DNA of 64,000 nt from Candidatus Marinacidobacterium sp. (GTDB lineage: Bacteria; Acidobacteriota; Vicinamibacteria; Marinacidobacterales; Marinacidobacteraceae), in contig OZ244986.1 in NCBI GenBank assembly GCA_965223075.1, positions 1,795,591-1,859,590 on the forward strand. Direction: 5' to 3'. Below the pieces are notes generated by a model that searched no databases, was not told where the DNA came from, and saw only the letters and a program-made list of their open reading frames with translations. Positions 23,502-52,567 of the stretch are shown here, in pieces (position 1 is the first letter of the stretch; each line of letters begins with the position of its first letter). A program made the translations under genes and the position numbers.

Positions 23502-23823
23502 GCCGCGCTTCTCGAACGCGCACCCCGTCGCGATCCCGCGCCGGAAGCTGTCGGGGACGCTGAGCAGGGGTTCCGCATGAGGTCCGGAGCGCTGCGAGCC
23601 TGACGGCGCGCTGGCGAGGGAAGCCGACCTCCGGTCGGCATCGTATCCACAACCAGGCCCCGCGAATCACGGGAGTCTTGAGAAACCGGCGGATCCGGCC
23701 GAGGCCGAGCGGCATCTCTTCCGCTTCCGTCACCGGGGAGATGGCTCGTTCCTCCGGAGGTGCGGGCGGCAGAGCTTCCTCCGGGGAACCCCTGCGCTGG
23801 ATGGTACCGGGAGGGTGGCCGGC

Positions 23824-25122: not shown

Positions 25123-25138
25123 TCCGCAAGTCCCGGGT

Positions 25139-25387
25139 TCATTCGAGATCGTCCCGTTCAGCGAGCACCCACTGGCGGTCCCGGAGCACGACCTCCCGGC
25201 CGAGGACCGCAAGCAACCGGAAGACGGTATCCATCCGGGTTCCGGGCGCGCCGTTTTCGGCGGCGGAGACCGTGGCCTGCCGCAGCACGCACGCCTCCGC
25301 CAACTCCGCCTGGGTCATGCCCCGCCGCCGTCGGAGAGACCGAATCGCCTGACCGAGGGCGCGCGGGCTCGTTGCGATGGGATCCAT
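25139..25387 (-). CDS. hipB: HipB XRE-family HTH antitoxin
   Basis: 82 aa with HTH_3 motif LGQAIRSLRRRRGMTQAELAEACVLRQATVSAAENG, immediately upstream of hipA. Confidence 0.75.
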   Translation of the reverse strand: MDPIATSPRALGQAIRSLRRRRGMTQAELAEACVLRQATVSAAENGAPGTRMDTVFRLLAVLGREVVLRDRQWVLAERDDLE

Positions 25388-25439
25388 GGGGCTATTCCGA
25401 TATACGCCGTATCGTATACTGCACGAATATACGCCAAAC

Positions 25440-25750
25440 CGCAAATCACCCATCCGACCGACGGTCCGGGCCGACAGGGACCGCCGACCTCCGGTCGGCA
25501 TCGCCCGCCGCGGGCGGGCGAAACCGGCAGTAACCCTCCAATAGATGGCGGCGAGCGAAACGGCGCTCACGTAGGCAACCAGGTCGCCATCCCGCAGAAT
25601 CCCCGTGCTTCGCTTCCGCGGACCGCCGGCTGTGACACTTCCGGTCAGTTGCCCGGGCCGGCGGCGCGCCGCCAGCACGGGTTTCGCCCTACCGGGCGAT
25701 GCCGGTCTGGAGACCGGCGGTCCCTGGCCCTTCCGCCGCCCGTCGCTAGC
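25440..25750. repeat. REP-like mosaic palindromic region
   Basis: Contains GACCGCCGACCTCCGGTCGGCATCGCCCGCCGCGGGCGGGCGAAACCGGCAG and GATGCCGGTCTGGAGACCGGCGG modules. Confidence 0.6.
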
Positions 25751-25751
25751 C

Positions 25752-27701: not shown

Positions 27702-27819
27702 GCCGCCTCCTTGGAACGAGGGATGGGCCAGTTCGGCGTTATATCACCGAGCGGGGGTGATGGAGGCCCCCATTGCGCCAGCAGCCCGGACCGCCTCCAG
27801 CGGTGCGTAGAATGCGGGG

Positions 27820-28812
27820 ATGCTCGATATGAAGGTGATGGAACGAAATCGACGGACACCGGTTTCCGAGTTGGAGTTCGTCGGCTGCGAGCCGATCCGG
27901 GTGAGCGCGGCCGAGATCGAGGGTCCCGAGTGGGAGGGACGCCGCGTCGAGTACTGGCACGCGCTGACGGAGACGGCTTGGCTGGTGCGGGAACCGACGA
28001 GCCCGTACCACGAAGTTCCGTCGCGTCGCCTTCCGGCCCTGGTGGAGCGGATCTGCCAGGCCCGCGGGTCGGCGGCCCGGTGCTTCGGTTCGTCCGATCT
28101 GCGGATTCGGGAAGAGGACGGATCGCTCGGCGATCTGATGCAGGCGGACGAAGCGGTGTACCTGCGCCCCGGCAAGGCGAAGATGCCGCGGGGCGCCGCA
28201 CTGATCGTGGGAGAGGATGACCCGCCGGACGTCGTGCTGGAGGTGGACAACACGACGGACGTTCGGCGCGGCAAGCTGATCGCGTATGCGGAGTGGGGGT
28301 TCCCCGAGATCTGGGTGGAGACGCCGGACGAGGGTTCGCCGAGCCGGCCGCGGGCCCTCCGGCCGCGGCTGGCGCTCCATGTGCTGGAGGACGGACGGTA
28401 CCGGGAGTCCATGGAGAGCCGGGCGTTTCCGGGGTGGCGCGCGGAGGAGATCCACCGCGCCCTGAACGAATCGGAGCTGTCGCTGGCGACGGATGCCGCG
28501 CTCTGGCGGGTGGGGCGGGCGCTCGGGGAGCGGGAGGGAACGGTCCCGGAGGACGATCATCTGCTGCGGCGGATGGAACGGCGGGGACATGCCCGAGGAC
28601 TCGCAGAGGGCCAAACCCGGGCGGCGCTGGAGGAACGGGCAGGGATGGCAGCGGCGATTCTGCGTCACCGCGGCGTCGCGGTTTCCCCCGACTTCCCGGC
28701 CGGTCTCTCCCGAGACGACCGCGCCATCCTTGCGGCGGCCTCCCCTGATGACGTCGTCGAGGCGGCCTCCGGCGCCGCCACCCTGGCCGACTTCCTCGCC
28801 CGTCTCCAGTAG
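27820..28812 (+). CDS. Uma2-family (DUF820) PD-(D/E)XK endonuclease fused to a C-terminal DUF4351-like domain
   Basis: Uma2 core PDVVLEVDNTTDVRRGKLIAYAEWGFPEIWV. The C-terminal RRMERRGHARGLAEGQ...AILRHRG...LADFLARLQ resembles DUF4351 of Rpn/YhgA-like proteins. Confidence 0.65.
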   Translation: MLDMKVMERNRRTPVSELEFVGCEPIRVSAAEIEGPEWEGRRVEYWHALTETAWLVREPTSPYHEVPSRRLPALVERICQARGSAARCFGSSDLRIREEDGSLGDLMQADEAVYLRPGKAKMPRGAALIVGEDDPPDVVLEVDNTTDVRRGKLIAYAEWGFPEIWVETPDEGSPSRPRALRPRLALHVLEDGRYRESMESRAFPGWRAEEIHRALNESELSLATDAALWRVGRALGEREGTVPEDDHLLRRMERRGHARGLAEGQTRAALEERAGMAAAILRHRGVAVSPDFPAGLSRDDRAILAAASPDDVVEAASGAATLADFLARLQ

Positions 28813-28854
28813 CCCAGCGCAAAAAGGGCGGCGGCATCCTCGCCGCCCTCCCGA

Positions 28855-31800
28855 ATGCACGAAAGAAGCGGTCAGCTCTTTTTCGCCCCCACGGACCTCA
28901 GCCGGTTCCTTTCGTGCCGGCACCTGACGAGCCTTTCCCGGAGCGTTGCCCTGGGTGAGCAGTCCCGGCCGCCCGAGTACGAAGATCCCCGGTTGGAGGC
29001 GCTGATCGAGGCCGGAAGAAAGCACGAGGCGGTGATCCTGGAGCGGTATCGGGCCGAAAGCCGCACCGTAGAGATCGTGGATCGCGACACGCCAGAGCGC
29101 CGGGCGCGCACCCTCGATGCGATGCGGCGCGGCGTGGACGTCATCTACCAAGGGTTACTCGCCCACGGGCCATGGAGTGGCTACCCCGACTTTCTGGTTC
29201 GGGTGCCGCGACGGAGCACACTCGGCGGGTGGTCCTACGAGGTGGTGGACGCCAAGCTCGCCACGGTGCCGAAGGCCGATGCAGTGCTCCAGATCGCCGT
29301 TTATTCGCGGCTTCTGGAGAAAGCACAGGGCGGAGTTCCGGTGCATATGCACCTCGAACTCGGCCGCCACCAGGGACGGGAGAGCTTCCGGGTGACGGAC
29401 TTCGCCGCGTTCGAGCGCGCCCTCGTCCGGCAGCTCGACGAGCACTGCGCCGCGCCATCGGACACCTACCCGGAGCCGGTCGAGTTCTGCGAGCGCTGCG
29501 ACTGGAACGCCGCCTGCAAGGACCGGCGGCGGGCGGACGATCACCTGTCGCTGGTCGCGAATACCACCCGTCATCAACGCCGCCGGCTTGAGACACAGGG
29601 GATCACGACCCTCACGGGTCTGGCGCGGATCACGCTTCCACTGGACCCACCGCTGGCGCGGGTGGCGCCGGCCGCGCTCCAGCGCATCCACCGGCAGGCG
29701 AACGTGCAGCGCACGGGGCGCCAGTTGAACCGGACTTTCTACGAGCTGGTGGTGCCTCCCGAGGACGGACGGGGACTACTGCGGCTCCCTCAGCCCTCCG
29801 CAGGAGATCTGTTCTTCGACATCGAGAGTTCTCGACCGGGGGCGGACGAGGCTCTCGAATACCTGTTCGGGTTGGTCGATCGCGACGGCCAGTACGAAGA
29901 CCGTTGGGCCTTCGACCGGGCCCGCGAACGCCGGGTTTTCGAAGATTTCCTGGATCTGGTGGCTGAACGCCGTGAACGCTTCCCCGACCTCCACATCTAT
30001 CACTACGGGAGCTACGAGACCGGGGCCCTGAAGCGCCTGATGTGCCGCTACGCCACCCGCGAGGACGCGATGGACGGGCTGCTCCGCCGCCAGGTCTTCG
30101 TGGACCTCCTGCAGGTCGTGCGGCAGGGGGTGGTGGCGTCGGTGGAGAGTTACTCGATCAAGGAAATGGAGCCGTTCTTCGGTTTCGAGCGGGAACAGGA
30201 ACTCCTCGAAGCAAACCGGGCGCGCGCCCGGATGGACGCCTTGCTCGATTCCGGGGACGCCGCTGCGGGCACGCTTCCAGGGGATCGGGAGCTGATCCGC
30301 CGCTACAACCGCGAGGACTGCCTATCCGCGCTGGAACTCCACGGATGGCTCGAAGGGCGGCGGCTCGAACTGACGAACCGCGTCGGCTTACGGGAGCGGC
30401 CGGTCGTGGAAATCTCCCCGGAGGACGAACAGGCGCAAACGGAGGCCGCGGCGCGGGTATCGGAACTCGTCGCCCGGCTCGCGCAAGGTCCCGAGGAGGA
30501 GGCGGACGCGCGGCGGCTCCTGGGCCATCTGCTCGACTACTACCGGCGGGAGGACAAGTCGACATGGTGGGAGTACTTCCGCGTGAAGGATCTCGACGCG
30601 CAGGAACTGGTCGAAGACCCGGCACCGCTAGGCGGACTGGAGTTTGACCAGGACATGGGGCCGGAGAAGCGGTCCGTGCTGCATCGTTACCGGTTTCCTC
30701 TCCAGGAACACCGGATCAAGGCCGGCAAGAAGGTCGAGGATTTCGACACCGGCAGGTCGCCCGGTGATGTGTTCGAAATCGCGGACACCACGGTGACCCT
30801 CAAGCGCAGCAGCACGGCCCGGCGGCAACCTCATCCGCGGGCGTTGGTGCCGGACGAGCACGTGCGCCCGGCCCCCAAACCGGGTTCCCTGTTCCACCTC
30901 GGCGAACTGGTCGCGGACCATGGATTCGCCGATGACAGTCCCCGCCGGGCGGCCTTCGATCTCCTTCGCCGGATCCCGCCGCGCGACGGCATAGCCGGAG
31001 AACCGCTGGTCCATCCGGGCGAAAACATCCTCGCCGCCGCCCGCCGTCTTGCGCTCGGCCTCGACCGCGGCGTGCTGGCGGTCCAGGGACCGCCAGGCAG
31101 CGGCAAGACCTACGTTGGCGCCCGCATCGTCACCGCGCTGCTGGCGGCCGGACGGCGGGTGGGAGTCACGGCGCAGAGCCACCGCGTCATCACGAACCTG
31201 CTGGACAGCGTGTGCTCGGCGGCGACGGAGGAGGGAGTCGTCTTCCGGGGCATCCAGGGGGTGCGGGAGACGGGTTGCGACGATCCGCGGATCGCGGTCC
31301 TGCCCGGTCCCTCGAGGCTGACCGCCGAGGCCGCAGCGGCCCCCGACGTCCGGCTCATCGGCGGCACCGCCTGGGTCTGGTCCCGGGAGGACATGGCGGA
31401 CTCCGTGGACGTGCTGGTCGTGGACGAAGCCGGGCAGTTCGCCCTCGCGGACGCGCTCGCCTCCGCGCCGGCCGCGAACAGCCTCGTCCTGCTCGGCGAC
31501 CCCGCCCAGCTCGACCAGGTAACCCAGGGCGTCCACCCGGAGGGATCCGTTGCCTCCGCGCTCGGCCACCTCCTCGGCGAGCACCAGACGATGCCGGCCG
31601 ACCGCGGCCTCTTCCTGGCAGCGACCTGGCGGATGCACCCGGACATCTGCCGGTTCACCTCGGAGCAGTTCTACGAGGGCCGGCTGGAAGCGCGGCCGGG
31701 CCTGGAGCGGCAGGGAATCCGCGGAGGGCCAATCCCTGGTGCGGGACTCCGCTTTGTCCCCGTCACGCACGCAGGCAACCAGACGGAATCGCGAGAGGAG

Positions 31801-32229
31801 GCCGGACGGGTCGCCGTCCTCGTTGATGGCCTACTGGAAGGCGCGTCGTGGACCGATTCCTCAGGAGCCACGCGACGGGTTACACCTGACGACATCCTCG
31901 TAGTAGTCCCATACAACGATCATCTCGCCCTGCTGGACCGCCAACTCGGGGACCGCGTGCACGGGGTGGGAACCGTGGACAAGTTCCAGGGCCAGGAGGC
32001 CCCTATCGTGTTCTTCTCGATGGCGACCTCGACCCCGGAGGCGGCCCCGCGGGGGATGGACTTCCTCTATTCGGCGCACCGCCTCAACGTGGCGACGTCG
32101 CGAGCCCGCTGCCTCGCGGTCGTGGTGGCAAGTCCGGAATTGTTCTTTCCGGAGTGCAAGACCCCGCACCAGATGCGGCTCGCCAACGCCTTCTGCCGGT
32201 TTCGTGAGTTGGCGGAAACGGTCCCATAG
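28855..32229 (+). CDS. Large nuclease-helicase: Cas4-like PD-(D/E)XK Fe-S nuclease + RNaseH-like (TM0106-type) exonuclease-like domain + Upf1/Dna2-like SF1 helicase
   Basis: N-terminus: YPDFLV...YEVVDAKL nuclease motifs plus a CxxCx5C cluster (CERCDWNAAC). Middle: DLFFDIES and YHYGSYE (DnaQ/RNaseH-like). C-terminus: Walker A GPPGSGKTY, Walker B VVDEAGQ, DKFQGQE and NVATSRAR. Confidence 0.75.
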   Translation: MHERSGQLFFAPTDLSRFLSCRHLTSLSRSVALGEQSRPPEYEDPRLEALIEAGRKHEAVILERYRAESRTVEIVDRDTPERRARTLDAMRRGVDVIYQGLLAHGPWSGYPDFLVRVPRRSTLGGWSYEVVDAKLATVPKADAVLQIAVYSRLLEKAQGGVPVHMHLELGRHQGRESFRVTDFAAFERALVRQLDEHCAAPSDTYPEPVEFCERCDWNAACKDRRRADDHLSLVANTTRHQRRRLETQGITTLTGLARITLPLDPPLARVAPAALQRIHRQANVQRTGRQLNRTFYELVVPPEDGRGLLRLPQPSAGDLFFDIESSRPGADEALEYLFGLVDRDGQYEDRWAFDRARERRVFEDFLDLVAERRERFPDLHIYHYGSYETGALKRLMCRYATREDAMDGLLRRQVFVDLLQVVRQGVVASVESYSIKEMEPFFGFEREQELLEANRARARMDALLDSGDAAAGTLPGDRELIRRYNREDCLSALELHGWLEGRRLELTNRVGLRERPVVEISPEDEQAQTEAAARVSELVARLAQGPEEEADARRLLGHLLDYYRREDKSTWWEYFRVKDLDAQELVEDPAPLGGLEFDQDMGPEKRSVLHRYRFPLQEHRIKAGKKVEDFDTGRSPGDVFEIADTTVTLKRSSTARRQPHPRALVPDEHVRPAPKPGSLFHLGELVADHGFADDSPRRAAFDLLRRIPPRDGIAGEPLVHPGENILAAARRLALGLDRGVLAVQGPPGSGKTYVGARIVTALLAAGRRVGVTAQSHRVITNLLDSVCSAATEEGVVFRGIQGVRETGCDDPRIAVLPGPSRLTAEAAAAPDVRLIGGTAWVWSREDMADSVDVLVVDEAGQFALADALASAPAANSLVLLGDPAQLDQVTQGVHPEGSVASALGHLLGEHQTMPADRGLFLAATWRMHPDICRFTSEQFYEGRLEARPGLERQGIRGGPIPGAGLRFVPVTHAGNQTESREEAGRVAVLVDGLLEGASWTDSSGATRRVTPDDILVVVPYNDHLALLDRQLGDRVHGVGTVDKFQGQEAPIVFFSMATSTPEAAPRGMDFLYSAHRLNVATSRARCLAVVVASPELFFPECKTPHQMRLANAFCRFRELAETVP

Positions 32230-32412
32230 CGACGCGCATCCTGCTTCCTCGGGCGGGCGATGCGGGCTGGGAGGCAACGGTCCCCGGTTGGCGTGCGTTC
32301 TCGGAGGCGGGTCTCCCGGACTCCCGCTCTCCTTTTGTCTGGCGAACCGTAACTTTTCAATCTGCCGATGGGTATATTTTCATTTAGCCGAACTGATGTT
32401 TACAATCTGCCG

Positions 32413-33675
32413 ATGGTCCGGAACACCATCTACCCCCGCTTCGTCGAGCCGCGCCTCGCCGAAGCGCTCGCAGATTCTCCTGCCGTTCTGATCCACGGTC
32501 CCCGCCAATCCGGGAAGACCACCCTCGCCCGCCGGTTCGGACAAGGTCGCGGTTACGCGTACATCAACCTGGATGACGACACCCTGCGGGACGCCGCCGA
32601 GGCGGATCCGGTTGGCTTCGCCGCCGATTTGCCCGAGCGCGTCATTCTGGACGAAGTGCAGCGGACTCCATCGCTGTTCCGGGCCCTGAAGACCGAGATT
32701 GACCGGAGGCGGACGCCGGGCCGCTTCCTGATGGCGGGCTCGACCCAGGTGCTGCTCCTACCGCGGTTGTCCGACTCGCTGGCGGGCCGCCTGCAGATCG
32801 TGCGGCTCCATCCGCTGTCGCAGGCGGAACTCACGGGTCGGATTCCCGACTTCCTCGACACGGTCTTCGGCGACGGCTTTCCGATGGCCCACAGCGAGCG
32901 ACTTGGACCGCAACTGGCCGGGCGGATCGTCGCCGGGGGATATCCGGCCGCGCTCGCCCTGCCGACGGAGCGACGCCGAGCCCGCTGGCTCCGCGACTAC
33001 ACAGCGGCGCTCGTGGAGCGTGACGTACGGGACGTAGCCCGGATCGGAGCGCTGGAAGCCCTGCCCCGACTGCTCGGCGTCGCAGCCGCCCAAACCGCCG
33101 GGCTCTTCAACGTGAACGATTTGGCCTCGCCCTTCCAACTCACACGCCCCACGATCCGCAGCTACCTGACGCTCCTTGAACGGATATTCCTGCTGGCGCG
33201 CCTGCCCGCCTGGCAGAGCAATCGCGTGAGCCGCCTGGTCAAGACACCGAAGCTCCACTTCGGCGACACCGGCCTGGCGTGCGCCCTGCTGGGCGCGAAC
33301 GCCGAGGAACTGGCCCGGAACCGAACGCTGCTGGGCCAACTACTGGAGACGTTCGTGTTCCAGGAACTGAGCCGGCAGGCGGACTGGAATGACGACCCGA
33401 TGACTTTTTTCCATTTCCGCGACCGCGACGGAGTCGAGGTGGATCTGGTGATCGAGCGGGCCGGTGGGGCCGTCGCCGGAGTGGAGGTCAAGGCATCCTC
33501 CACGGTAAGGGGTCGCGACTTCCGGGGACTCCGCAAACTGGCGAATGCCACCGGGGACCGATTCGCGTCCGGGGTAGTGCTCTTCGACGGGGAAACCAGT
33601 GCGCGGTTCGGCGAACGTCTGTTTGCAGTGCCGATTCGAAGGTTGTGGGAGGCACCTGGAGGCGGAGGCGGGTAG
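32413..33675 (+). CDS. AAA_14 ATPase with DUF4143 domain (paralog 1)
   Basis: Walker A HGPRQSGKTT and DUF4143 C-terminal domain. The lister's start at 32368 is also possible. Confidence 0.7.
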   Translation: MVRNTIYPRFVEPRLAEALADSPAVLIHGPRQSGKTTLARRFGQGRGYAYINLDDDTLRDAAEADPVGFAADLPERVILDEVQRTPSLFRALKTEIDRRRTPGRFLMAGSTQVLLLPRLSDSLAGRLQIVRLHPLSQAELTGRIPDFLDTVFGDGFPMAHSERLGPQLAGRIVAGGYPAALALPTERRRARWLRDYTAALVERDVRDVARIGALEALPRLLGVAAAQTAGLFNVNDLASPFQLTRPTIRSYLTLLERIFLLARLPAWQSNRVSRLVKTPKLHFGDTGLACALLGANAEELARNRTLLGQLLETFVFQELSRQADWNDDPMTFFHFRDRDGVEVDLVIERAGGAVAGVEVKASSTVRGRDFRGLRKLANATGDRFASGVVLFDGETSARFGERLFAVPIRRLWEAPGGGGG

Positions 33676-33844
33676 GGAACGTTCCGCGGCGGGTACGGAA
33701 GCGGTGAGCGGTCGTGCCATCCGGGGTTACGCGAAGGTGCGGCACTCATGTTGGCGGAGCGCGGCGTCAGCGGCGCTGGTTTCGCGCTCCCGCGCGATGC
33801 CGGCCGGGAGGTCGGCGCCAGTTTTTCCGGTGGCGGCCCCTGCG
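33676..33844. repeat. REP-like palindromic element
   Basis: GGTTTCGCGCTCCCGCGCGATGCCGGCCGGGAGGTCGGCGCC module. Confidence 0.5.
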
Positions 33845-35425
33845 CTACTCGGCCGCCATGGGGCGGTCGCGGTCGTGGTCCACGACGCAGAAGAAGCCGA
33901 ACGGCTCGGCGGTCTCGTTCCGCAACTGGTGGGCCTCCAGCGGGCCGACGCAGGCGACGTCGAGATGCCGCAGCGGCAGCCGGCGATCTCCGAGGAGGAG
34001 GACGCCTTCCCCGCGCGCTCCGATGACCACGTGGGTGTGGACATGCCGCTCGAAGCTGGTGTGGCCGCCCGGCTCGACCTCGAAGTAGCGAAGATCCGAG
34101 CGCGTGCGCTCCCCGAATTTCCCGACGAGTTCCACCCGCCGCACGCCCCGGAACGCGAGATCTCGAGCGTCCTTGTAGGGCGAGCTGTCGCGCCCCTCCC
34201 AGTTCCAGTCGCGGCTGAAGGTCAACCGGCGAGGCTCCGGAAGCGCGGGGCGCGGCAGATCCGCCGGTTCCATGGCGACCTCGGGGTGGGATTCGCGGAT
34301 CCTCGCGAGGATCTCCCGGGTTCCCGCCTCCACGCCGCCGGCGTGGCCGAGCAGCGCCCCGCCAATCAGCAGCACCGTGTCCGGGCCGTAGGTCTCGCAG
34401 ATGCGTTCTACATCGGCCGGTCCCATTCCGCCGGCGGGGGCCGGCCACGCCGGACGCAGCGTGCCGAGCGGCTCCCGGAGCCGGCCGGTGATCTCCGAGC
34501 ACTCGGCCGCCGAATACGCAAAGCGGCCGCCCGCGTTCGGAAACACCGAAATGTCCGCTCCGGCCAAGCGGAACAGTGTCCCGAGCAGGACTCCGTGGGC
34601 CACTCCCTGCGCCTCCGCGTGGGTGTAGGCCCCGGTCAGCGAGGGGTGCGCCATGAAGATCAGCGGGTAGCGCTCCGCCAGCGCCCGCACCGTGTCGAGG
34701 CCGGTGATCATCGGGCAGATGAGCACTCCGGGAAGGCCGGCCTCGGCCACGAACTCGACGAAACGTTCGAGATCCTCCGCCCGGGCACCGGCGTGGGGAA
34801 GGTAGAGGCACCTTCGTCCGGTCGCCTGGTTGGCCCGCTCCACCGCCTCGCCGCAGACGGCGACGCGGCGGCGAAACCCTTCGAAGTCGTCGGTCAGGTT
34901 CTGGTCGTCCTTGACCAGATCTCCACCAGCCCGCGCAAACGCGCCCGCTATCGCGGCCAACTCGGGGACGCTCGAGCCCCGGGGCTTTACCGCCGTGGCC
35001 AGCAGCGGACGCCCGAGCACACCGCAAAGCCGCCGCACCCCTTCGACGCCGTGGTTCGGTCCCGGGAGGCTCTCGAGCAACGCCTGGGGTGGCTGCAGAT
35101 CGACGAGTCGCACGCCGCCGTACATCGAGGCGTTGCCGATCGCCACGCTCAGCAGGCCGAAGAGATCCGTCGCGAGGTCCGCCGCGTAGCTGATGGTGAT
35201 TCGGGAGGCGCCCGGAGCGTCCGGGTCGGGCGCTACCGACTCGACCTTCCCGACGATTTCGTCCTGAATCCGTCCGGGTGGAATCAGCGACTGCGGAATC
35301 TCTACCGTCTGCTCGATGGCGATGGCGCGGGCGAACTCCTCCGGGTCCCCGGAGTTCGCCTGCAGCCGGTAGACGGCGGTTACCCGATCGGGATCGGGCG
35401 GCGCCTCCCGCACGTTCGGTTTCAC
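33845..35425 (-). CDS. RuBisCO-like protein (form IV RLP) fused to a C-terminal cupin domain
   Basis: RLP large-subunit fold with GGDLVKDDQNL (the RuBisCO KDDE motif region). The C-terminal ~110 aa form a cupin (RYFEVEPGGHTSFERHVHTHVVIGARGEG). The start overlaps the tsaD stop by 4 nt. Confidence 0.7.
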   Translation of the reverse strand: MKPNVREAPPDPDRVTAVYRLQANSGDPEEFARAIAIEQTVEIPQSLIPPGRIQDEIVGKVESVAPDPDAPGASRITISYAADLATDLFGLLSVAIGNASMYGGVRLVDLQPPQALLESLPGPNHGVEGVRRLCGVLGRPLLATAVKPRGSSVPELAAIAGAFARAGGDLVKDDQNLTDDFEGFRRRVAVCGEAVERANQATGRRCLYLPHAGARAEDLERFVEFVAEAGLPGVLICPMITGLDTVRALAERYPLIFMAHPSLTGAYTHAEAQGVAHGVLLGTLFRLAGADISVFPNAGGRFAYSAAECSEITGRLREPLGTLRPAWPAPAGGMGPADVERICETYGPDTVLLIGGALLGHAGGVEAGTREILARIRESHPEVAMEPADLPRPALPEPRRLTFSRDWNWEGRDSSPYKDARDLAFRGVRRVELVGKFGERTRSDLRYFEVEPGGHTSFERHVHTHVVIGARGEGVLLLGDRRLPLRHLDVACVGPLEAHQLRNETAEPFGFFCVVDHDRDRPMAAE

Positions 35426-36486
35426 CGGTGGCGCCGGGACCTTCGCGGGCCCTGCTCCCCAAGCCGCAACTCGGTGTCTGCCGTGAGGTCCGCGCCTGCC
35501 GTCTCGCCCCGCAGGAGCGCCAGATGACCGGCGGCGGCGATCATGGCCGCGTTGTCGGTGGAAAGGGCGATGCTCGGGTAGAAAACGGGCAGGCCGCGCT
35601 CCTCACCGAGAGCGTGGAAGCGGGCACGGAGCGCCGAGTTGGCGGCTACCCCGCCGGACAGCAGGACCGCCCTCACTTCGAACATGTCAAGCGCGCGGTC
35701 CACCGAGCGGCGGAGCGCCCGCACCACCGCGGACTGGAAGCTGGCCGCAAGATCGCAGAGATCTTTTCGGCCGGCAGGATCCTCCCCGTCGGCCAAAGGC
35801 GCGATTCCTTCCTGCTCGATGAGCCGAAGGACCTGGGTCTTGAGGCCCGAAAAGCTGAAATCGAGTTTGGCGCCGTCCGAAAAGTGAGGGAGCGACAGCA
35901 GGTGGCGGTTCGCCTTGCCGCGCTGCGCCAACCGGTCGAGCACCGGACCGCCCGGATAGCCGAGCCCGAGCCGTTTCGCGAGCTTGTCGTACGCCTCGCC
36001 GGCCGCATCGTCGCGGGTCTTGCCGAGCAGCCGGTAGGAACTCTCGCCTTCGAGCAGGAAGAGACTCGTGTGTCCCCCGGAAACCACCAGCGCCAGCGCC
36101 GGGTGGGGAACCTCGCCGCCTTCCAGATAGCAGGCCCGGATGTGCCCCTCGATGTGGTCCACGCCCACCAGCGGAATGCCGCGGGCGAACGCGAAGGCCT
36201 TGGCGAAAGAGACCCCGGCAAGCAGCGCTCCAATGAGTCCCGGGCCACTCGTTACCGCAACCGCCTCGATGTCCGCGAGCCCCACGCGGGCCTCGCTCAG
36301 CGCTTGCCGCACCACCGGTGAAAGGTGCAGGAGATGCTGCCGGGACGCGATCTCGGGCACCACCCCACCGAAGGCCGCGTGCTCGGCGACCTGCGACGAA
36401 ACGACATTCGAGAGGATGCGCCGGCCGTCCTCGACAACCGCCGCCGAGGTTTCGTCGCAGGAGGTCTCGATCCCCAGGATGAGCAT
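35422..36486 (-). CDS. tsaD: tRNA N6-adenosine threonylcarbamoyltransferase
   Basis: MLILGIETSCDETSAAVV, VDHIEGH and GGVAAN motifs. The ORF lister fused it to an upstream junk extension; ATG 36486 is the real start. Confidence 0.85.
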   Translation of the reverse strand: MLILGIETSCDETSAAVVEDGRRILSNVVSSQVAEHAAFGGVVPEIASRQHLLHLSPVVRQALSEARVGLADIEAVAVTSGPGLIGALLAGVSFAKAFAFARGIPLVGVDHIEGHIRACYLEGGEVPHPALALVVSGGHTSLFLLEGESSYRLLGKTRDDAAGEAYDKLAKRLGLGYPGGPVLDRLAQRGKANRHLLSLPHFSDGAKLDFSFSGLKTQVLRLIEQEGIAPLADGEDPAGRKDLCDLAASFQSAVVRALRRSVDRALDMFEVRAVLLSGGVAANSALRARFHALGEERGLPVFYPSIALSTDNAAMIAAAGHLALLRGETAGADLTADTELRLGEQGPRRSRRHR

Positions 36487-36491
36487 GGGGT

Positions 36492-37244
36492 TCAGGGAGC
36501 GGCGCCAAACAGACGCTCCATGCCGCGCCTCCAGAAGGGTCCGTTGCGGACCAGGTCGGTCACGTCGGCGGTGAGCATCTCGGAGCAGGCCCGTTCGTGA
36601 CAGGTCTTCCAGTCCGGTCCATCGGGCCGCCCTAGTCGCCCCACGGCGAGAAGGTCGATACGCTCCTCCGCCGAGAGAGCGCCGAGCCGGGCAGTGAGGC
36701 GGCTGCGCGCCAGCGATTCGACCGTCTCCCCGGTGGCGGAGAGGAGATCGTAGGCCTGCGCGAGCGCCACCACGGTCGACCGGGCGATCACCGGCGCCAC
36801 GGCCGCCGCGCCGATCTCGTCCGCGAAGTCGTCGGCGCCGAGATAGCGCACCGGGATTCCGAGCGCACTCGCCTCGACCTTGTTTGCGAGCCTCCGGTCG
36901 GCGGTAACGAGCGGCGATCCGGTCTTCTCCGCACAAGTGAGATAGAGAGCGTCGTACACCGGGTGGTCGAGCGCCAGGGCTATCCCGGCGGCGCGATGAA
37001 CGAAGCGACCGGGCGGATGCAGAGTTATCTCGTACGGGAGGCGTCCGAGGAGGTTCAAGTGCTCCATTACGTCGGGAAGCTGTCCGCGGCGGAATTTCTT
37101 CCAGCAGACATTCGCGAACTCCGCGAGCAGCAGGTCGGGAGCATGCAGTTCCAGCCGGTGGGCGCGCAACAGCTTGGCCGTCCCGGCCAGTTCCTCGGTT
37201 ACGGACCACTTGACGACGACGCTGGCGTCGACCGTCAGCCTCAC
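36492..37244 (-). CDS. PIN-domain (VapC-like) protein with ~110-aa C-terminal extension
   Basis: The four PIN acidic residues sit in VDASVV, LLAEF, YDALYL and VTADRRL. It overlaps the upstream RHH antitoxin (ATGA) and ends 5 nt before tsaD. Confidence 0.6.
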   Translation of the reverse strand: MRLTVDASVVVKWSVTEELAGTAKLLRAHRLELHAPDLLLAEFANVCWKKFRRGQLPDVMEHLNLLGRLPYEITLHPPGRFVHRAAGIALALDHPVYDALYLTCAEKTGSPLVTADRRLANKVEASALGIPVRYLGADDFADEIGAAAVAPVIARSTVVALAQAYDLLSATGETVESLARSRLTARLGALSAEERIDLLAVGRLGRPDGPDWKTCHERACSEMLTADVTDLVRNGPFWRRGMERLFGAAP

Positions 37245-37477
37245 CGGTCCCGATCTTCGCGCAACAGCAGGACGCTGTCCGTCTGGGGAATGTCGGCGGT
37301 CATCCGGGAGAGCGCGTCGGTGCGCTCGCGAAACTGCACCATGCGCTGTATCCGGTCGAACCGCTCCGTCAGTGCGCGCCGGGCCTCGGCCTCCATCGAA
37401 CGGTCGTTCGCCTTGGCCTCCGCCTTCAGCGCCTGGATCACCCGATCATCAAGGTTGCGAATTGTGAGACTACCCAT
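37241..37477 (-). CDS. FitA/VapB-like ribbon-helix-helix antitoxin
   Basis: MGSLTIRNLDDRVIQALKAEAKANDRSMEAEARRAL is a typical FitA-like RHH. Confidence 0.65.
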   Translation of the reverse strand: MGSLTIRNLDDRVIQALKAEAKANDRSMEAEARRALTERFDRIQRMVQFRERTDALSRMTADIPQTDSVLLLREDRDR

Positions 37478-37554
37478 GGCGGCTCCTTCTGAGTGAAGGC
37501 ATCATGCTAGCACATCGCATTCACGATGAGGCAAATCGCTGCAGCAGATCGGAT

Positions 37555-38598
37555 TCAGCGGGCAAGCTGCCCGAGAGAGGGGCCCAAGGGAGGCCGGGCG
37601 ATGCCGCGCTCGGTGACGATTGCGGTGATGTAGCGGGCGGGAGTGACATCGAAGGCCGGGTTCCAGACCGGGACGCCCTCGGGCGCCACCCGCTCCCCGG
37701 CAATCTCGACGAGTTCCTCCGGACCACGCTCTTCAATGGGGATGTCCGCCCCGGTGGGCGTTTTCAGATCCACGCTCGAAAAGGGCGCCGCCACCAGGAA
37801 CGGGACGTCGTGTTCCTTCGCGAGCACGGCAGCCTGATAGGTGCCGATCTTGTTGGCGATGTCGCCATTCGCGGCGATCCGGTCGGCGCCCACGACGACC
37901 GCGTCGACCCCTCCCCTGGCGAGCAGGGCGCCGACCATCCCGTCGGTGATCAGAGTCACCGGAATCTTCTCGGCCATCAGTTCCCAGGCGGTGAGGCGAG
38001 CGCCCTGAAGGTACGGCCGGGTCTCGGGTGCGAAGACCTCGACCCGGCGGCCCGATTCCACCGCCGCGCGGACGATCCCGAGCGCGGTGCCGTAACCCGA
38101 AGTGGCAAGGCTGCCTGCGTTGCAATGGGTCAGGACGCGGGCCGGCCCGCCGCCGGGGGGCAACAGGCCGGCGCCGAGCGCGCCGAGACGGCGGTTCGCG
38201 TCCAGATCCTCCGCGGCGATCCGGTTCGCCTCGTCCTCGAGGCCGGCGACGAGTTCAGCGGGCGCCTGTGACAGTGCCGAATCCAGCCGAGCCCGCATCC
38301 GATCGAGCGCGGCCCGGAGATTGACCGCAGTCGGCCGGGTGTTCAGGAGCTCGGCCGCCAGGCCGTCGAACCGGTTCGCCGCAGGGTCGGTGTCAGGACC
38401 GCGGGCGAACCCGAGGACCACCGCGTAGGCGGCAGCAACCCCGATCGCCGGAGCGCCGCGAACGACCATGTCGCGGATGGCCTCTCCAACCTGGCCGGGT
38501 TCGGCGCACTCGATCCAGACCTCTTGCGAGGGGAGCCGGCGCTGGTCCAGCAGAGCGAGGACGCGGCGCTCGGAGTCCCACCGGAACGGACGGACCAT
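37555..38598 (-). CDS. mtnA: S-methyl-5-thioribose-1-phosphate isomerase
   Basis: eIF2B-like fold with mtnA motifs (THCNAGSLAT, GADRIAANGDIANKIGTY). Confidence 0.8.
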   Translation of the reverse strand: MVRPFRWDSERRVLALLDQRRLPSQEVWIECAEPGQVGEAIRDMVVRGAPAIGVAAAYAVVLGFARGPDTDPAANRFDGLAAELLNTRPTAVNLRAALDRMRARLDSALSQAPAELVAGLEDEANRIAAEDLDANRRLGALGAGLLPPGGGPARVLTHCNAGSLATSGYGTALGIVRAAVESGRRVEVFAPETRPYLQGARLTAWELMAEKIPVTLITDGMVGALLARGGVDAVVVGADRIAANGDIANKIGTYQAAVLAKEHDVPFLVAAPFSSVDLKTPTGADIPIEERGPEELVEIAGERVAPEGVPVWNPAFDVTPARYITAIVTERGIARPPLGPSLGQLAR

Positions 38599-38599
38599 C

Positions 38600-39260
38600 C
38601 GAGCACCCTAGCAGCCGGTAGTGAAACCCAGGCGGCCCAGTTGCTGTGAAAATGCCGTCGCGCTGGGACGCCGACAACCCGGATGGCGCGCAGGCAAGGG
38701 AACGCCGACCTCCGGTCGGCACAGCGGCCCGCAGGGCCGCGGGCGGTTCATTGCCGTCCGCCTTCACGGGGCGCAGGCATGGGGCCCGCAGCGCTGCGAA
38801 GGTGTCTGCCATTCCAATGTACGGATCACGCCGAACGCTGGGATTCCCGCCGAGAAGGAACCACCTCGGAACTGGGGGTCCTTCCCGCCGCCCGCCTTCG
38901 GCGGGCTGTGCCGACCGGAGGTCTATACCTTTCCGGGCATCACTTTTTCATGGGGCAGACAGCTTGCGAACGAATGGCGCCGGAGGGGGTGCGTTGGGGC
39001 GCGGCCGGTAGCCGGGGGGCGGCGTCAAGAGGAGGAAGGCGGCGCAGGTTCCGAGCTGGCCGAACCTCATCTGGGCTGGTGTCGATTCCCCGAGGGGCAA
39101 GCCCATTTTTCCTGCTTCCGGCCATGAAACTGCTCCCCGCCCATCCGCGGCGGCGAAGGCACCCGGAGGGCCGGAGCGCAGCGGAGGAGGCGCGCCGCGC
39201 CTTGCCTTCGTCGCCGTGGATGGGCACGATGCTCTCCTCCTGCCGGAACCCTCTGTGCCA
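38600..39260. repeat. REP-like region including composite element copy B (38690-38940)
   Basis: ~90% identical to 3700-3990 over ~230 bp. The right arm is degenerated. Confidence 0.65.
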
Positions 39261-39309
39261 ATGTAGGTGAGACCATTTGCCCGTCTCCTATTAGTGAGGG
39301 TGAGAAGGA

Positions 39310-39801
39310 TTGGAGTTGGTGATGAGAACGAACGCGCCAAGGGGTTTGACCGCGTCGTCGGCCACGGAGCGAGCCCGGAGGGCGAGCGCAGAGGCCGACG
39401 ACGCGGTCGCGATCTTGCCGGAACCCCAGGTGGTGGCGACGCCGAAGCGCCGCCGGTTCACCGCCGAATACAAGCGCCGGATCCTGGAGGCGGCCGACGC
39501 GTCGCGCGAACCGGGGCAAATCGGCGCCCTCCTGCGCCGGGAGGGGCTGTATTCCGCCCTTCTCAGCAAATGGCGTGCGCAGCGTGACCGGGGGGTCCTC
39601 AACGCCCTCGCACCCAGAAGGCGGGGACGCAAGCCCGTGCACCGCACTGCGGACCAGGTTCGCATCGCCGAACTGGAACGCGAGAACGAAACCCTCCGCG
39701 GTCAGTTGCAGCAGGCCGAGCTGATCATCGATGTCCAAAAAAAAGTCGCGAGTCTGCTGGGCGTGAAACCCCCGGACGGGAAGCACGAGCCCAACTCATG
39801 A
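39310..39801 (+). CDS. IS3-family transposase OrfA (HTH)
   Basis: HTH/leucine-zipper protein (RRFTAEYKRRILEAAD..., ELERENETLRGQLQQAELI). Its stop overlaps the orfB ATG. Confidence 0.75.
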   Translation: MELVMRTNAPRGLTASSATERARRASAEADDAVAILPEPQVVATPKRRRFTAEYKRRILEAADASREPGQIGALLRREGLYSALLSKWRAQRDRGVLNALAPRRRGRKPVHRTADQVRIAELERENETLRGQLQQAELIIDVQKKVASLLGVKPPDGKHEPNS

Positions 39802-40811
39802 GCGCCGTGGAATCGCTCTCCGGGTCCGTGGGTGTCCGTCGCGCCTGCGAACTCCTCGGCGTGAGCCGCGCCAGTTGGTACCGCGCTCGTCAGAGCCGAT
39901 CCACAGCCCGCGCTCGCCCACGACCGCCGCTCGCGCTCCGCCCTCACGAGCAGGAGAAAGCCCTGGCCGTGCTTCACGCGGAACGCTTTGTGGACCAGGC
40001 GCCGCGCGCCATCTATGCGACCTTGCTCGAAGAAGGGCGTTACCTCGCCTCGGTGCGCACCCTTTACCGGTTGTTGGCCTCGCGGGGCGAGGTGCGGGAG
40101 CGGCGGGCACAGCGCCGACATCCCAACTACTCCCGGCCGGAACTGCTCGCGACCGCCCCCAATCAACTCTGGTCCTGGGACATCACCCGGCTGAAGGGTC
40201 CCGTGAAGTGGACCTATTTCCACCTGTATGTGATCCTGGATGTCTTCAGCCGCTGCGTCGTCGGCTGGATGGTCGCTCACCGGGAGTCGTCACGGTTGGC
40301 CGAGCGGCTCATCCAGCACTCCTGCGAAAGCCACGGCATCCGCCCCGGACAACTGACCCTGCACGCCGACCGCGGCTCCTCGATGAAATCCAAGCCGGTC
40401 GCGCTGCTGCTGGCCGATCTCGGGGTCACCAAGACCCACGCGCGCCCCCACGTCTCCGACGACAACCCCTTCTCGGAGGCCCAGTTCAAGACCTTGAAAT
40501 ACCGACCGGACTTCCCCGACCGGTTCGGATCCATCGAAGACGCCCGTGCTCACTGCGAAGCCTTCTTCCATTGGTACAACCACGAACACCGACACTCCGG
40601 TATCGCCCTGTTCACTCCCGCCGACGTGCACCGCGGCCTCGTAGCGCTGCGTCTCCAGACCCGACAGGCCACCCTCGATGAAGCTTTCAGAGCACATCCC
40701 AACCGATTCAAGGGCAACCCGCCGGTCGCCCACCGGCCCCCCCACACCGTCTGGATCAACCGGCCAGCCTCCGAGTCCAACACGCCACACAACCACCCCG
40801 TTGCCCCCTAA
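39798..40811 (+). CDS. IS3-family transposase OrfB (DDE integrase)
   Basis: rve integrase core: WSWDITRL, HADRGSSMKS and FHWYNHEHRHSGIALFTP. Confidence 0.85.
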   Translation: MSAVESLSGSVGVRRACELLGVSRASWYRARQSRSTARARPRPPLALRPHEQEKALAVLHAERFVDQAPRAIYATLLEEGRYLASVRTLYRLLASRGEVRERRAQRRHPNYSRPELLATAPNQLWSWDITRLKGPVKWTYFHLYVILDVFSRCVVGWMVAHRESSRLAERLIQHSCESHGIRPGQLTLHADRGSSMKSKPVALLLADLGVTKTHARPHVSDDNPFSEAQFKTLKYRPDFPDRFGSIEDARAHCEAFFHWYNHEHRHSGIALFTPADVHRGLVALRLQTRQATLDEAFRAHPNRFKGNPPVAHRPPHTVWINRPASESNTPHNHPVAP

Positions 40812-41127
40812 ATGCAAACCAAAGTGGTCTCACAGTCATTGACACCTTCCGGAAGCAGGAAAACCACGTTTCCTTTTTTTCTGGGCCCTCCGGTGTGAGA
40901 GGCACCGAAGGGCCCTACCTCACCAACCTGTTAGCCGACCCGCCGGGAGCAACCAACCGGAGGCGCGTGTCTTGAACACCTACGCCGGACTGTGCCTCGA
41001 CGGGTCATTGGCCGTGATCGACGCACAGTAGAAGGGCAGCGCCATCGAGCAGCCAGTATAGGCCCACGCGGACATCACGGCGGCTGACTTCCCCACGAGG
41101 GACTCCCCTCGGAAGGACAACAGCGCC

Positions 41128-42375
41128 ATGACACCTCCTTTTCTTTTTTTCGTCGGCATCGATTGGGGCTCGACGACCCACCATGCATGCCTGCTGGACG
41201 CGCACGGTTCGGTTCGCGGCAGCCGGGCCTTTCCCCACGGGGGCGCGGGCCAGGCGGAGCTCGTCCGCTGGCTCCTGGAGGAGACCGGCGCCGCCCCCGG
41301 GCAGATCGCGGTCGCCATCGAGACGCCCCACGGCCCCGTCGTCGAAGGGCTGCTCCTCGCCGGTTTTGCGGTCTTCGCCATCGGTCCCGCCCAGATCCGC
41401 GGCTCCCGCCGCCGCTACGTCTCCTCCGGGGCCAAGGACGACCCCCGCGATGCCTGGATGCTCGGTCGCGCCCTGCGCGCCGACCCCGACCTCTTCCGAC
41501 GGCTCCACCTGGAGGAGTCTCTCGTCCTCCAGCTGCGGGAACGCACCCGCACCGTCAACGAGTTGACTTGCCAGCGCACCCGCCTCTGCCACCAGATCCG
41601 ACAGCAGCTCTGGCGCTATTACCCCCAACTCCTCGCCATCCCCGACCTCCTCAACCAACTCACCCACCCCTGGTTCGTCGAACTCTGGAACAAGGCCAAA
41701 ACCCCCGCACGGGCCCTCAAGCTGCGCCTCTCCACCCTCGCCAAACTCCTCAAAAAGCACGGCATCCGCCGACTGAACGCGAAAAGCCTGCGGGAGATCC
41801 TGCGCGCGTCCGCGCTCTCCGTCGCCCCCGGAACCGCCGAGGCCGCCTGCCGAGCCCTCCAGGGCCTCTTCGCCCAGGCACACACCACCAACCAACTCCT
41901 CGCCCAGGCACGTCAAGACATCCGCGAACTGCTGAAGGCGTTCTCCCAGAACCACGCCGACGACCAACGCCCCGACGACCCCACCATCCTCCTCTCCCTG
42001 CCCGGAGTCGGGGTCTACGTCCTCAGCACTCTCTTCGCCGAAGCCTTCGCCCTGCTCCAACGCCGCGACTACCCCGCACTCCGCGCCCGCTCCGGAGTCG
42101 CCCCCGTCAGCATCCAGTCCGGCAACACCCGCTGGGAGATCCGCCGCCTCGCCGTCCAGCACGAACTCAGAAACGCCCTCTATCACTGGGCCCGCGTCGC
42201 CGCCCAACACGACCCCCTCAGCAAGGCCCGCTACCGCGCCCTCCGCGCCCGCGGCTTCTCCCACGGCCGTGCCCTCCGCACCGTCGGCGACCGGCTCCTC
42301 GCCGTCGCCTGCGCCATGCTCAAAAACGGCACCCTCTACGACCCCAAGCTCTCCCGAGACAAGCTCGCCGCCTGA
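41128..42375 (+). CDS. IS110-family transposase
   Basis: N-terminal DEDD domain (FVGIDWGSTTHHACLLD) and C-terminal Transposase_20 HhH (LLSLPGVGVYVLSTLFAE). The IS ends are not definable by eye. Confidence 0.8.
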   Translation: MTPPFLFFVGIDWGSTTHHACLLDAHGSVRGSRAFPHGGAGQAELVRWLLEETGAAPGQIAVAIETPHGPVVEGLLLAGFAVFAIGPAQIRGSRRRYVSSGAKDDPRDAWMLGRALRADPDLFRRLHLEESLVLQLRERTRTVNELTCQRTRLCHQIRQQLWRYYPQLLAIPDLLNQLTHPWFVELWNKAKTPARALKLRLSTLAKLLKKHGIRRLNAKSLREILRASALSVAPGTAEAACRALQGLFAQAHTTNQLLAQARQDIRELLKAFSQNHADDQRPDDPTILLSLPGVGVYVLSTLFAEAFALLQRRDYPALRARSGVAPVSIQSGNTRWEIRRLAVQHELRNALYHWARVAAQHDPLSKARYRALRARGFSHGRALRTVGDRLLAVACAMLKNGTLYDPKLSRDKLAA

Positions 42376-42804
42376 ACAACTCCTCCAACCAAAAAAGGAG
42401 CTTCAGAGGGAGCCGGTGGAACGTGTGGGAAACGCGCTCCTCTCCGCCGCGGACGGCGAACAACCGCCGACGCGGCGCCGCGTTTCCCAACGCCCGGGGA
42501 GATCGCTCCCCCTCCCACCAGTCTCCGAAACCCCCAACCACCTCGCATCCCGATCTCCCCGGGACGGCACTTTCCAACCGCTACCAGGCACCGGCCCGCA
42601 GCCCCCCTTTACCCCCTTGACAAAAGGTAGAAGGTCCGGCGTTCCCTTGCCTGCGCGTCGCTCCGTCTGGTGGCTTGGGAGCCATGCGCCATGTTCAGTG
42701 TCCGCGTGGCGCCTCCTGCGACTCGGCGAGCGCTCCCGAGTATGAAAAATGCGGGCTAGCAGTCCACCGGGAGGACTGGCCGGCGTTCCCAATGAGTTCG
42801 ATCG

Positions 42805-50990: not shown

Positions 50991-50993
50991 CTG

Positions 50994-52394: not shown

Positions 52395-52567
52395 CGGCCC
52401 GCGCAGCGGTCCGGCACGCGGCTCTCGGGCACTCTTCGGGGCGAACCTTTCCCATGGTCCGCCGGAACATCGAGCCGGGGACACGCACTCCCGCCGCACG
52501 TCCAGCTACACCCCGCCGCCTTTCGATCTGGAGCAGGTCATTGTTCTGGCGCGGAATCGGGCGCTGA

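Follow-up and report, generated by a model that had tools for sequence, protein, structure and literature searches.

A RuBisCO-like protein fused to a cupin in Candidatus Marinacidobacterium and its relatives, a probable bifunctional enzyme of the MTA-isoprenoid shunt

A 64,000-nucleotide (nt) stretch of the Candidatus Marinacidobacterium sp. genome (Acidobacteriota; Vicinamibacteria; GenBank assembly GCA_965223075.1, contig OZ244986.1, positions 1,795,591 to 1,859,590 of the forward strand), here called the window, encodes a protein of 526 amino acids (aa) in which a RuBisCO-like protein (RLP) is joined in frame to a cupin domain. We propose that this protein carries two consecutive steps of the shunt from 5'-methylthioadenosine (MTA) to isoprenoids, the MTA-isoprenoid shunt. 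MtnA, encoded 2 kb upstream, would make 5-methylthioribulose-1-phosphate (MTRu-1P), which the N-terminal, DeepYkr-type RLP domain would isomerize to 1-methylthioxylulose-5-phosphate (MTXu-5P). The C-terminal cupin domain, which is metal dependent and attached through a short linker rich in Pro, would then use a thiol to take off the methylthio group; 1-deoxyxylulose-5-phosphate (DXP) would become available for isoprenoid synthesis and a methanethiol equivalent for rebuilding methionine. In this clade of Vicinamibacteria, the ancestral arrangement would be mtnA-tsaD-rlp::cupin, with tsaD most likely a passenger that has no chemical link to the pathway. A gene pair for a ribbon-helix-helix (RHH) protein and a PIN-DUF3775 protein would be a self-contained, VapBC-like module that landed, with its own operator, in the slot between mtnA and tsaD. 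We consider this explanation as a whole likely. The chemical steps are taken from work on Rhodospirillum rubrum and Rhodopseudomonas palustris (summarized in PMC5893883) and were assigned to the fusion protein by homology and gene linkage only. Sequence comparisons establish the domain identities, the existence and range of the fusion, the conserved residues, the synteny, and the variability of the cassette, whereas enzyme activities, co-transcription, and any operator or promoter role are predictions. The fusion gene and its parts are as follows.

33845-35425, minus strand: RLP::cupin fusion gene, 526 aa (RuBisCO_large at residues 128-370, Cupin_2 at residues 447-515)
34271-35425, minus strand: RLP domain of the fusion, residues 1-385, a probable DeepYkr-type RuBisCO-like protein and putative MTRu-1P 1,3-isomerase
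34238-34270, minus strand: Pro-rich interdomain linker, about residues 386-396, a variable alignment region with low values in the predicted local distance difference test (pLDDT)
33845-34237, minus strand: cupin domain of the fusion, residues 397-526 plus the stop codon, putative MTXu-5P methylsulfurylase

The in-frame joining of the two domains, claimed when the window was first described, is borne out across many genomes. In a scan that took one genome from each species, 183 related stretches were confirmed, and each of the 80 loci kept from it matches the window fusion over both domains in a single frame. Within a search space of 5.8 billion proteins, the homologue clusters listed (at least 120) are all 501 to 584 aa long and 53 to 94% identical to the window protein, and among 120 of them all but one have both Pfam domains. 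The hosts, at least 80 species genomes from at least four phyla, include Vicinamibacteria (among them "Candidatus Marinacidobacterium"), many Gammaproteobacteria (including Lysobacterales, Rhodanobacteraceae, Thiotrichales, and Immundisolibacterales), Planctomycetota (including Schlesneria, Planctomicrobium, and Phycisphaeraceae), and KSB1; the fusion of OZ252286.1 is 96% identical to that of the window. Alignments of fusion proteins, one with 10 and one with 54 sequences, show strong conservation in both domains and variability confined to the region that joins them. Linker length is conserved. The AlphaFold (AF2) model of the fusion has a mean pLDDT of 89 and a sole dip at residues 390-400, where values are about 55 and fall below 50 at residues 395-398. 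The stand-alone cupin 3IBM can be aligned from fusion residue 397 on; since stand-alone cupins start aligning exactly at the linker end, the fusion appears to be a simple end-to-end joining.

The same RLP family also has unfused members. A cupin is present in 35 of 140 near-full-length family sequences (representatives at 50% identity), and fused and unfused representatives are interleaved in a neighbor-joining tree of star-like topology. Some representatives have longer linkers or further additions. For instance, P0131 (726 aa) has an N-terminal inositol-monophosphatase-like domain joined to the RLP, and P0232 (781 aa) has an RLP followed by two cupin stretches. P0130, P0186, and P0226 are listed among the other architectures, and several RLPs carry long extensions that have no Pfam match.

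For the RLP half, Pfam family RuBisCO_large (PF00016) matches residues 128-370 with 74.9 bits against a cut-off of 30.1, and the best match in the Protein Data Bank (PDB) is 3QFW (E 1.3e-64, 221.9 bits, 40% identity over 349 residues). The other references reached 157 bits for 4NAS and 143 bits for Bacillus subtilis MtnW (139 to 157 bits for MtnW-type proteins), about 100 bits for the Photo-clade RLPs 1TEL and 2QYG, and at most 143 bits for RuBisCO forms I to III. A Foldseek comparison of the AF2 model with 3QFW gave a template modeling (TM) score of 0.91 and a root mean square deviation of 1.9 Å. The PDB names 3QFW as the RLP of R. palustris; 2QYG is R. palustris rlp2, a member of the Photo clade. 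Because the other R. palustris RLP is 2QYG, we infer by elimination that 3QFW should be RLP1 (RPA2169), the DeepYkr enzyme, which has been shown in vivo to act as an MTRu-1P 1,3-isomerase (PMC5893883).

Motifs and model scores point in the same direction. The window RLP and 3QFW share the motif KP(R/Q)G, which is not found in MtnW, as well as FPNxGGRFAY, which has Arg at the position of RuBisCO K334 and is likewise missing from MtnW. They have KDD(Q/H) where MtnW has KDDE, and IGGxLL where MtnW has GGGxHGHP. The active-site lysines (equivalents of RuBisCO K175 and K201) and the Asp metal ligand are kept, and K147, K172-D173-D174, R301, G332-G333, and G355-G356 are invariant among the 54 fusions. 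In a crude neighbor-joining tree, the window RLP, 3QFW, and the 140 representatives stand apart from MtnW/4NAS and from a form III outgroup. The window RLP fails both NCBIfam models for MtnW (NF007095, 199.8 bits against 409; TIGR03332, 153.8 against 513.6), those for RuBisCO forms II and III (TIGR03326, 150.4 against 497), and that for OiaX (85.9 against 700). The 3QFW score, the tree, and the motifs place the RLP half with the DeepYkr-type proteins and not with the Ykr/MtnW enolases, and it probably catalyzes the conversion of MTRu-1P to MTXu-5P. The original prediction had opposed DeepYkr to a Rhodospirillum-type clade; this contrast is false because the R. rubrum RLP is itself of the DeepYkr type, and the two are one clade (PMC5893883, PMC4958253). 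A bona fide RuBisCO of forms I to III was considered and rejected because E204, R295, and the GGGxxGHP motif are not kept (KDDQ rather than KDDE, HP rather than HR, IGGALL rather than GGGxxGHP) and because the scores are below the model cut-offs.

The cupin half resembles the enzyme of the following step. A phmmer search with residues 397-523 retrieved three stand-alone cupins, namely, 3IBM (E 9.2e-30), 3JZV (E 4.5e-19), and 3KGZ (E 2.2e-18), of which 3JZV is Rru_A2000, the protein named as the MTXu-5P sulfurylase (PMC4958253). Rru_A2000 is 36% identical to the cupin half (residues 14-133 of 166 aligned). Alignment with the Mn-cupin TM1459 predicts E459, H461, H465, and H499 as metal ligands, and these residues are invariant among the 54 fusions together with H463, Q500, C513, R519, and D520. 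An RDRP motif is fully invariant in the 10-sequence alignment, and the C-terminal motif GF(L/F)C..(D/N)..RD(R/K)P is common to the cupin half, 3IBM, 3JZV, and 3KGZ. No match to acireductone dioxygenase (ARD/MtnD) was found in Pfam or the PDB. The cupin half is a putative MTXu-5P methylsulfurylase, which would give DXP by thiol-dependent release of the methylthio group. The comparison with the R. rubrum methylsulfurylase, suggested earlier as a check, came out in favor of homology, with the metal ligands intact. Taken with the placement of the RLP, the result is the opposite of the pattern (an RLP among the Ykr/MtnW enolases and a cupin unlike methylsulfurylases) that had been named as fatal to the shunt assignment.

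The fusion gene is one of five genes on the minus strand, and matches to Pfam or NCBIfam models confirm the set that had been described (mtnA, RHH, PIN, tsaD, and RLP::cupin). The other features of the locus are the following.

37555-38598, minus strand: mtnA, S-methyl-5-thioribose-1-phosphate isomerase, 347 aa (TIGR00512, 430.6 bits against a cut-off of 279; Pfam IF-2B, 275.8 bits)
37493-37524, no strand: imperfect 32-nt palindrome in the mtnA-RHH spacer, putative operator of the RHH antitoxin
37241-37477, minus strand: FitA-like RHH antitoxin, 78 aa (PF22513, 56.9 bits against a cut-off of 27)
36492-37244, minus strand: PIN-domain toxin with a DUF3775-like C-terminal domain, 250 aa (PF01850, 37.9 bits against a cut-off of 23.6)
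35422-36486, minus strand: tsaD, subunit of the threonylcarbamoyltransferase for N6-threonylcarbamoyladenosine (t6A) at tRNA position 37, 354 aa (TIGR03723, 398.5 bits against a cut-off of 296.1)

The start of tsaD is the ATG at 36486, before MLILGIETS, and the mechanical open reading frame (ORF) reaching 37209 is too long. Long antisense ORFs at the locus, where G+C content is 67-70%, were dismissed as composition artifacts. The tsaD and fusion genes overlap by 4 nt, as had been claimed, but the letters are GTGA rather than ATGA, and the fusion start codon is GTG. Gaps of 0 to 5 nt had been reported around the RHH/PIN pair. This description holds for the 5-nt gap between the PIN stop codon and the tsaD ATG and for the junction of the RHH and PIN genes, which overlap by 4 nt (GTGA), but not for the mtnA side, where 77 nt separate the mtnA stop codon from the RHH start. 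The distance from mtnA to the fusion start, on the same strand, is 2.1 kb, in agreement with the approximately 2 kb first given. Co-transcription across the junctions from mtnA to the fusion is plausible. A consensus promoter scan gave no sigma-70 site in 33500-39300, terminator-like matches in that interval were not above chance expectation, and an Rfam search of the whole window returned nothing at gathering thresholds, so that no riboswitch or other RNA family was found upstream of mtnA.

The linkage between mtnA and the fusion is preserved across the clade. When the five window proteins were compared by tblastn with 86 loci (81 of them distinct), every relative with a fusion identity of 74% or more had the array mtnA-[slot]-tsaD-rlp::cupin. 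TsaD identity is 89 to 97% in loci with a fusion identity of 79% or higher and about 80% in L004 and L022. In more distant Vicinamibacteria and in other phyla, the fusion gene usually stands alone; one exception is L043, a gammaproteobacterial locus with mtnA directly downstream. Outside Vicinamibacteria, no pathway gene recurs among the clustered flanking ORFs of the 81 distinct loci, and recurrent neighbors are lineage specific only, such as one that is common to eight Lysobacterales-type loci.

The window has a gene for an OPT-family oligopeptide transporter at 25752-27743 (minus strand), and such a gene lies within a few kilobases of the fusion in ten Vicinamibacteria loci (L002, L004, L012, L016, L019 to L021, L023, L028, and L084); in L004, it directly follows the fusion. 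Some members of the OPT family transport glutathione, the thiol on which the R. rubrum cupin draws. A link between transporter and fusion through glutathione is speculative.

Both homologies support the view, put forward in the original prediction, that the RLP and the cupin are fused steps within the MTA-isoprenoid shunt, and the protein is a probable bifunctional enzyme with an activity predicted from its sequence. In R. palustris, RLP1 and its cupin perform both steps in vivo (PMC5893883). The window protein and the shunt enzymes of R. rubrum and R. palustris (Rru_A1998/RPA2169 and Rru_A2000/RPA2170) belong to the same two families in the same order, with the identities given above (40% to 3QFW and 36% to Rru_A2000), the catalytic Lys and Asp and the cupin metal ligands kept, and an association with mtnA. 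The window protein differs in that the two enzymes form one polypeptide, with a Pro-rich linker of roughly 10 to 25 residues; in its host, which is an acidobacterium of the Vicinamibacteria and not an alphaproteobacterium; and in its RLP, which has KDDQ rather than KDDH and a six-residue loop.

Several observations weigh against the assignment to the shunt. The activities of all fused members are predicted, and identity to the characterized enzymes is just 36 to 40%. Cupin_2 scores 26.2 bits (residues 447-515), slightly below the Pfam cut-off of 27.2, although the PDB matches back the family assignment. Fused RLPs retain a six-residue loop (YTHAEAQGVAHG) that is lost in 3QFW, and they have Gln after KDD where 3QFW has His. 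Pfam scans of 30 further ORFs did not find mtnP, dxs, dxr, or the O-acetylhomoserine sulfhydrylase gene metY within the window, nor did Pfam scans find thiol cofactor genes there. Outside the Vicinamibacteria clade, the fusion gene is mostly alone, with no conserved pathway neighbor.

Some of these observations would also fit an enzyme with the same two folds that works outside the shunt on another substrate, such as 5-deoxyribulose-1-phosphate from 5'-deoxyadenosine salvage or some other sugar phosphate. The RLP domain would then isomerize a different ketose phosphate, and the cupin would perform another metal-dependent step. Because of the loop YTHAEAQGVAHG and the Gln of KDD(Q), the substrate or product could differ from that of 3QFW, and the modest identity to characterized enzymes and the lack of an mtnA neighbor in most phyla leave room for such a difference. 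Moreover, the nearest unfused RLP (P0121) has SDR and Ldh_2 neighbors and no cupin, and RLP clades are functionally diverse, as exemplified by OiaX among the NCBIfam models. Nevertheless, mtnA is tightly linked to the fusion across the whole Vicinamibacteria clade and in L043, and the best characterized relatives of the two halves are exactly two consecutive shunt enzymes. The order of RLP and then cupin is also that of the R. palustris locus tags, rlp1 (RPA2169) and cupin (RPA2170) (PMC5893883), and the OiaX score is far from its cut-off. We judge a different substrate to be unlikely, while giving it some weight.

The genes between mtnA and tsaD appear to have a separate history. We conclude that the RHH/PIN pair is a predicted self-contained, VapBC-like mobile module inserted in an older mtnA-tsaD-rlp::cupin operon, on the grounds that the slot is variable, the module occurs in unrelated contexts elsewhere, and it has its own palindrome. 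For counts of distinct loci, L003, L011, and L022 were left out because they repeat L002 and L004. An RHH gene and a long PIN gene occupy the slot in nine distinct loci (L001, L002, L007 to L010, L015, L087, and the window). Six related genomes (L013, L016, L017, and L019 to L021) have nothing there, with mtnA and tsaD 4 nt apart in L016, and L004 has a SprT-like gene and another ORF. In L012, L014, and L018, the same FitA-like RHH is instead fused in frame to an unrelated C-terminal domain, which amounts to a domain swap at the same chromosomal slot. This domain (about 150 aa, no Pfam match; the L012 gene lies at 4071-4826) replaces the separate PIN gene. Pairs of a 78-aa RHH of the same Pfam family and a PIN protein of 275 to 277 aa occur elsewhere in unrelated contexts, for instance, beside a PglZ gene.

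The PIN gene also diverges out of step with its surroundings, being 58 to 69% identical where the flanking genes are 80 to 97% identical. PIN-DUF3775 proteins of L001, L007, and L008 are 58 to 61% identical to that of the window, while their tsaD and fusion are 94 to 97% and their mtnA 90 to 95% identical. The PIN protein of L009, on the other hand, is 99% identical, though the flanks of L009 are less similar than those of L007. This mismatch points to exchange of the cassette or to rapid evolution.

Upstream of the RHH gene, the 77-nt spacer contains a 32-nt imperfect palindrome (37493-37524; minus strand, GTGAATGCGATGTGCTAGCATGATGCCTTCAC) that is kept in 10 of 10 related loci with an RHH gene, while the rest of the spacer is variable. 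Within it, TGCTAGCAT resembles an extended -10 element, though the consensus sigma-70 scan gave no promoter there. We take the palindrome to be the likely operator of the RHH antitoxin, perhaps with a promoter.

Four acidic residues of the predicted toxin are conserved in 20 homologues (D6, E42, and D116 invariant; D98 in at least 90%). Like VapBC and FitAB type II toxin-antitoxin systems, the pair has an RHH gene that overlaps the PIN gene by 4 nt, the four PIN acidic residues, an upstream palindrome, and a mobile distribution. Unlike them, it is embedded in a housekeeping operon and its toxin has a DUF3775-like C-terminal domain of about 130 aa, in a recurrent architecture. The C-terminal extension had been put at 110 aa; it is present, but the PIN domain covers residues 5-121, which leaves about 130 aa. 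The DUF3775 match is weak in the window protein (19.2 bits, residues 182-227) and reaches 35.5 bits in the 270-aa orthologue of L008, and the window PIN protein is about 20 residues shorter than the 270-aa forms. The PIN-DUF3775 architecture, at 250 to 286 aa, is common to about 80 clusters.

The first description suggested that the pair is co-transcribed with the genes around it; we do not regard it as an integral part of the operon. In an alternative reading, it would be functionally integrated and no selfish insert, for instance, as a tRNA-cleaving PIN protein tuned by TsaD-dependent t6A or as a regulator of the sulfur-salvage genes. Its tight junctions (the 4-nt overlap and 5-nt gap) and its recurrence at one site across nine distinct related loci, with fusion identities of 82 to 96%, are compatible with integration, and a promoter/operator in the palindrome, if any, would drive tsaD and rlp::cupin too. 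However, six related genomes lack any gene in the slot and four have different cargo there, the module has unrelated neighbors elsewhere, and the pair is set off by its own palindrome and the 77-nt spacer. The PIN gene, furthermore, diverges much faster than its flanks, yet is 99% identical in one genome with less similar flanks. Functional integration is quite improbable in light of these observations, and the insertion of a mobile module remains our preferred account of the pair.

Classical, oxygen-dependent methionine salvage, with an MtnW-type enolase fused to an MtnD-type acireductone dioxygenase, would offer another role for the fusion. MtnW is an RLP, ARD/MtnD has a cupin fold, the top NCBIfam matches by E-value are the MtnW models, and fusions in the pathway are known, such as Tetrahymena MtnBD (PMC3698126). 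YkrW/MtnW of Bacillus and Geobacillus (2,3-diketo-5-methylthiopentyl-1-phosphate enolase) also shares with the window RLP the RuBisCO-like fold, about 30% identity, and a methionine-salvage role downstream of MtnA. The window RLP, however, falls far under the cut-offs of both MtnW equivalog models, lacks KDDE and GGGxHGHP while having the DeepYkr motifs, and is paired with a methylsulfurylase-type cupin and not with MtnX or MtnD. The lack of MtnD similarity in Pfam and the PDB removes this alternative, and cupins of the Rru_A2000 type match at 1e-18 to 1e-29. We rejected it on model scores and motifs, and the scores effectively refute it. An assembly or frameshift artifact joining two genes, in favor of which there is only the existence of unfused RLPs in the same family, is excluded for practical purposes by the conserved domains and linker length, the confident AF2 model of both domains, and one continuous frame seen both in 80 genomes independent of one another and in protein clusters, more than 120 in number, drawn from several sources, the stop codon between domains that had been feared being found in none of the 80 loci.

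Both enzymes and the pathway are already known, and databases contain many proteins of the fused architecture, named in generic or misleading ways. In the papers covered by a full-text literature search, the fused RLP-cupin form is not described, though an earlier mention may exist. Fusions of consecutive MTA-recycling steps in one polypeptide have precedents in Tetrahymena MtnBD and MtnAK, but these involve other enzymes, the oxygen-dependent classical branch, and a eukaryotic host. The shunt has been placed in some proteobacteria and Meiothermus (PMC5893883, PMC4958253), and, judging by the fusion, it likely also occurs in Vicinamibacteria, Planctomycetota, many Gammaproteobacteria, and KSB1. 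As a natural joining of consecutive enzymes, the fusion provides genomic evidence, in independent support of the pathway, that a DeepYkr RLP and a cupin act together. This "Rosetta-stone" fusion points to a likely wider distribution of the shunt and sets annotation right, and it brings no new principle. The correction has a practical side. The JGI labels many of the fusions "ribulose-bisphosphate carboxylase large chain," so they could be misread as carbon fixation and inflate gene counts when metagenomes are surveyed; their cupin tail makes it easy to recognize them as enzymes of sulfur salvage. The RHH/PIN pair illustrates how a mobile toxin-antitoxin module, together with a control element of its own, can become lodged within a housekeeping operon, which is instructive but ordinary.

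Tethering the two domains may have a further consequence. Free R. rubrum RLP yields a 3:1 mixture of MTXu-5P and 1-methylthioribulose-5-phosphate (PMC5893883), and because of this mixture one may speculate that the fusion could favor the hand-over of MTXu-5P between domains. The single fused polypeptide is a convenient target for testing such channeling. It is, in our estimate, a long shot that the fusion is a substrate-channeling bifunctional enzyme by which many uncultured Acidobacteriota, Planctomycetota, and Gammaproteobacteria convert MTA to DXP and methanethiol without oxygen. If true, this route might supplement or replace Dxs as the entry to the methylerythritol phosphate (MEP) pathway in some genomes, and it might be an unrecognized source of volatile methanethiol in marine and soil microbiomes.

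Upstream of mtnA, the window carries one further feature.

38924-42631, no strand: 3.7-kb insertion with an IS3-family element and an IS110-family transposase, given for context only; absent in L087

L087 is a contig from a close relative whose flanks are 96.6 to 99% identical to those of the window. The insertion contains an IS3-family element (39310-40811, plus strand, with ORFs 39310-39801 and 39798-40811) and an IS110-family transposase gene (41128-42375, plus strand), with Pfam matches to HTH_Tnp_1, rve, DEDD_Tnp_IS110, and Transposase_20. It separates atpB/atpE from mtnA, lying 325 nt upstream of where the latter gene starts, and could isolate the mtnA operon from upstream transcription.

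A noncoding repeat of about 230 bp occurs at 38699-38923 and at 3732-3957 (91% identical to each other), with shorter fragments at 20979-21044, 13656-13704, 25486-25520, 23599-23640, and 16695-16733; L007 and L009 have a related piece downstream of their fusion gene. The repeat may be an element resembling a miniature inverted-repeat transposable element (MITE).

Genes of defense or toxin-antitoxin type are abundant in the window at 23824-33675 and 50970-57955. They include genes for HipA (23824-25314, minus strand), a Uma2 nuclease (27811-28812, plus strand), a 1124-aa protein with RNase_H_2 and a superfamily 1 (SF1) helicase (28855-32229, plus strand), and three AAA_14/DUF4143 ATPases (32368-33675, 50970-52394, and 56675-57955). 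In relatives, a HepT/MNT pair lies directly downstream of the fusion gene instead.

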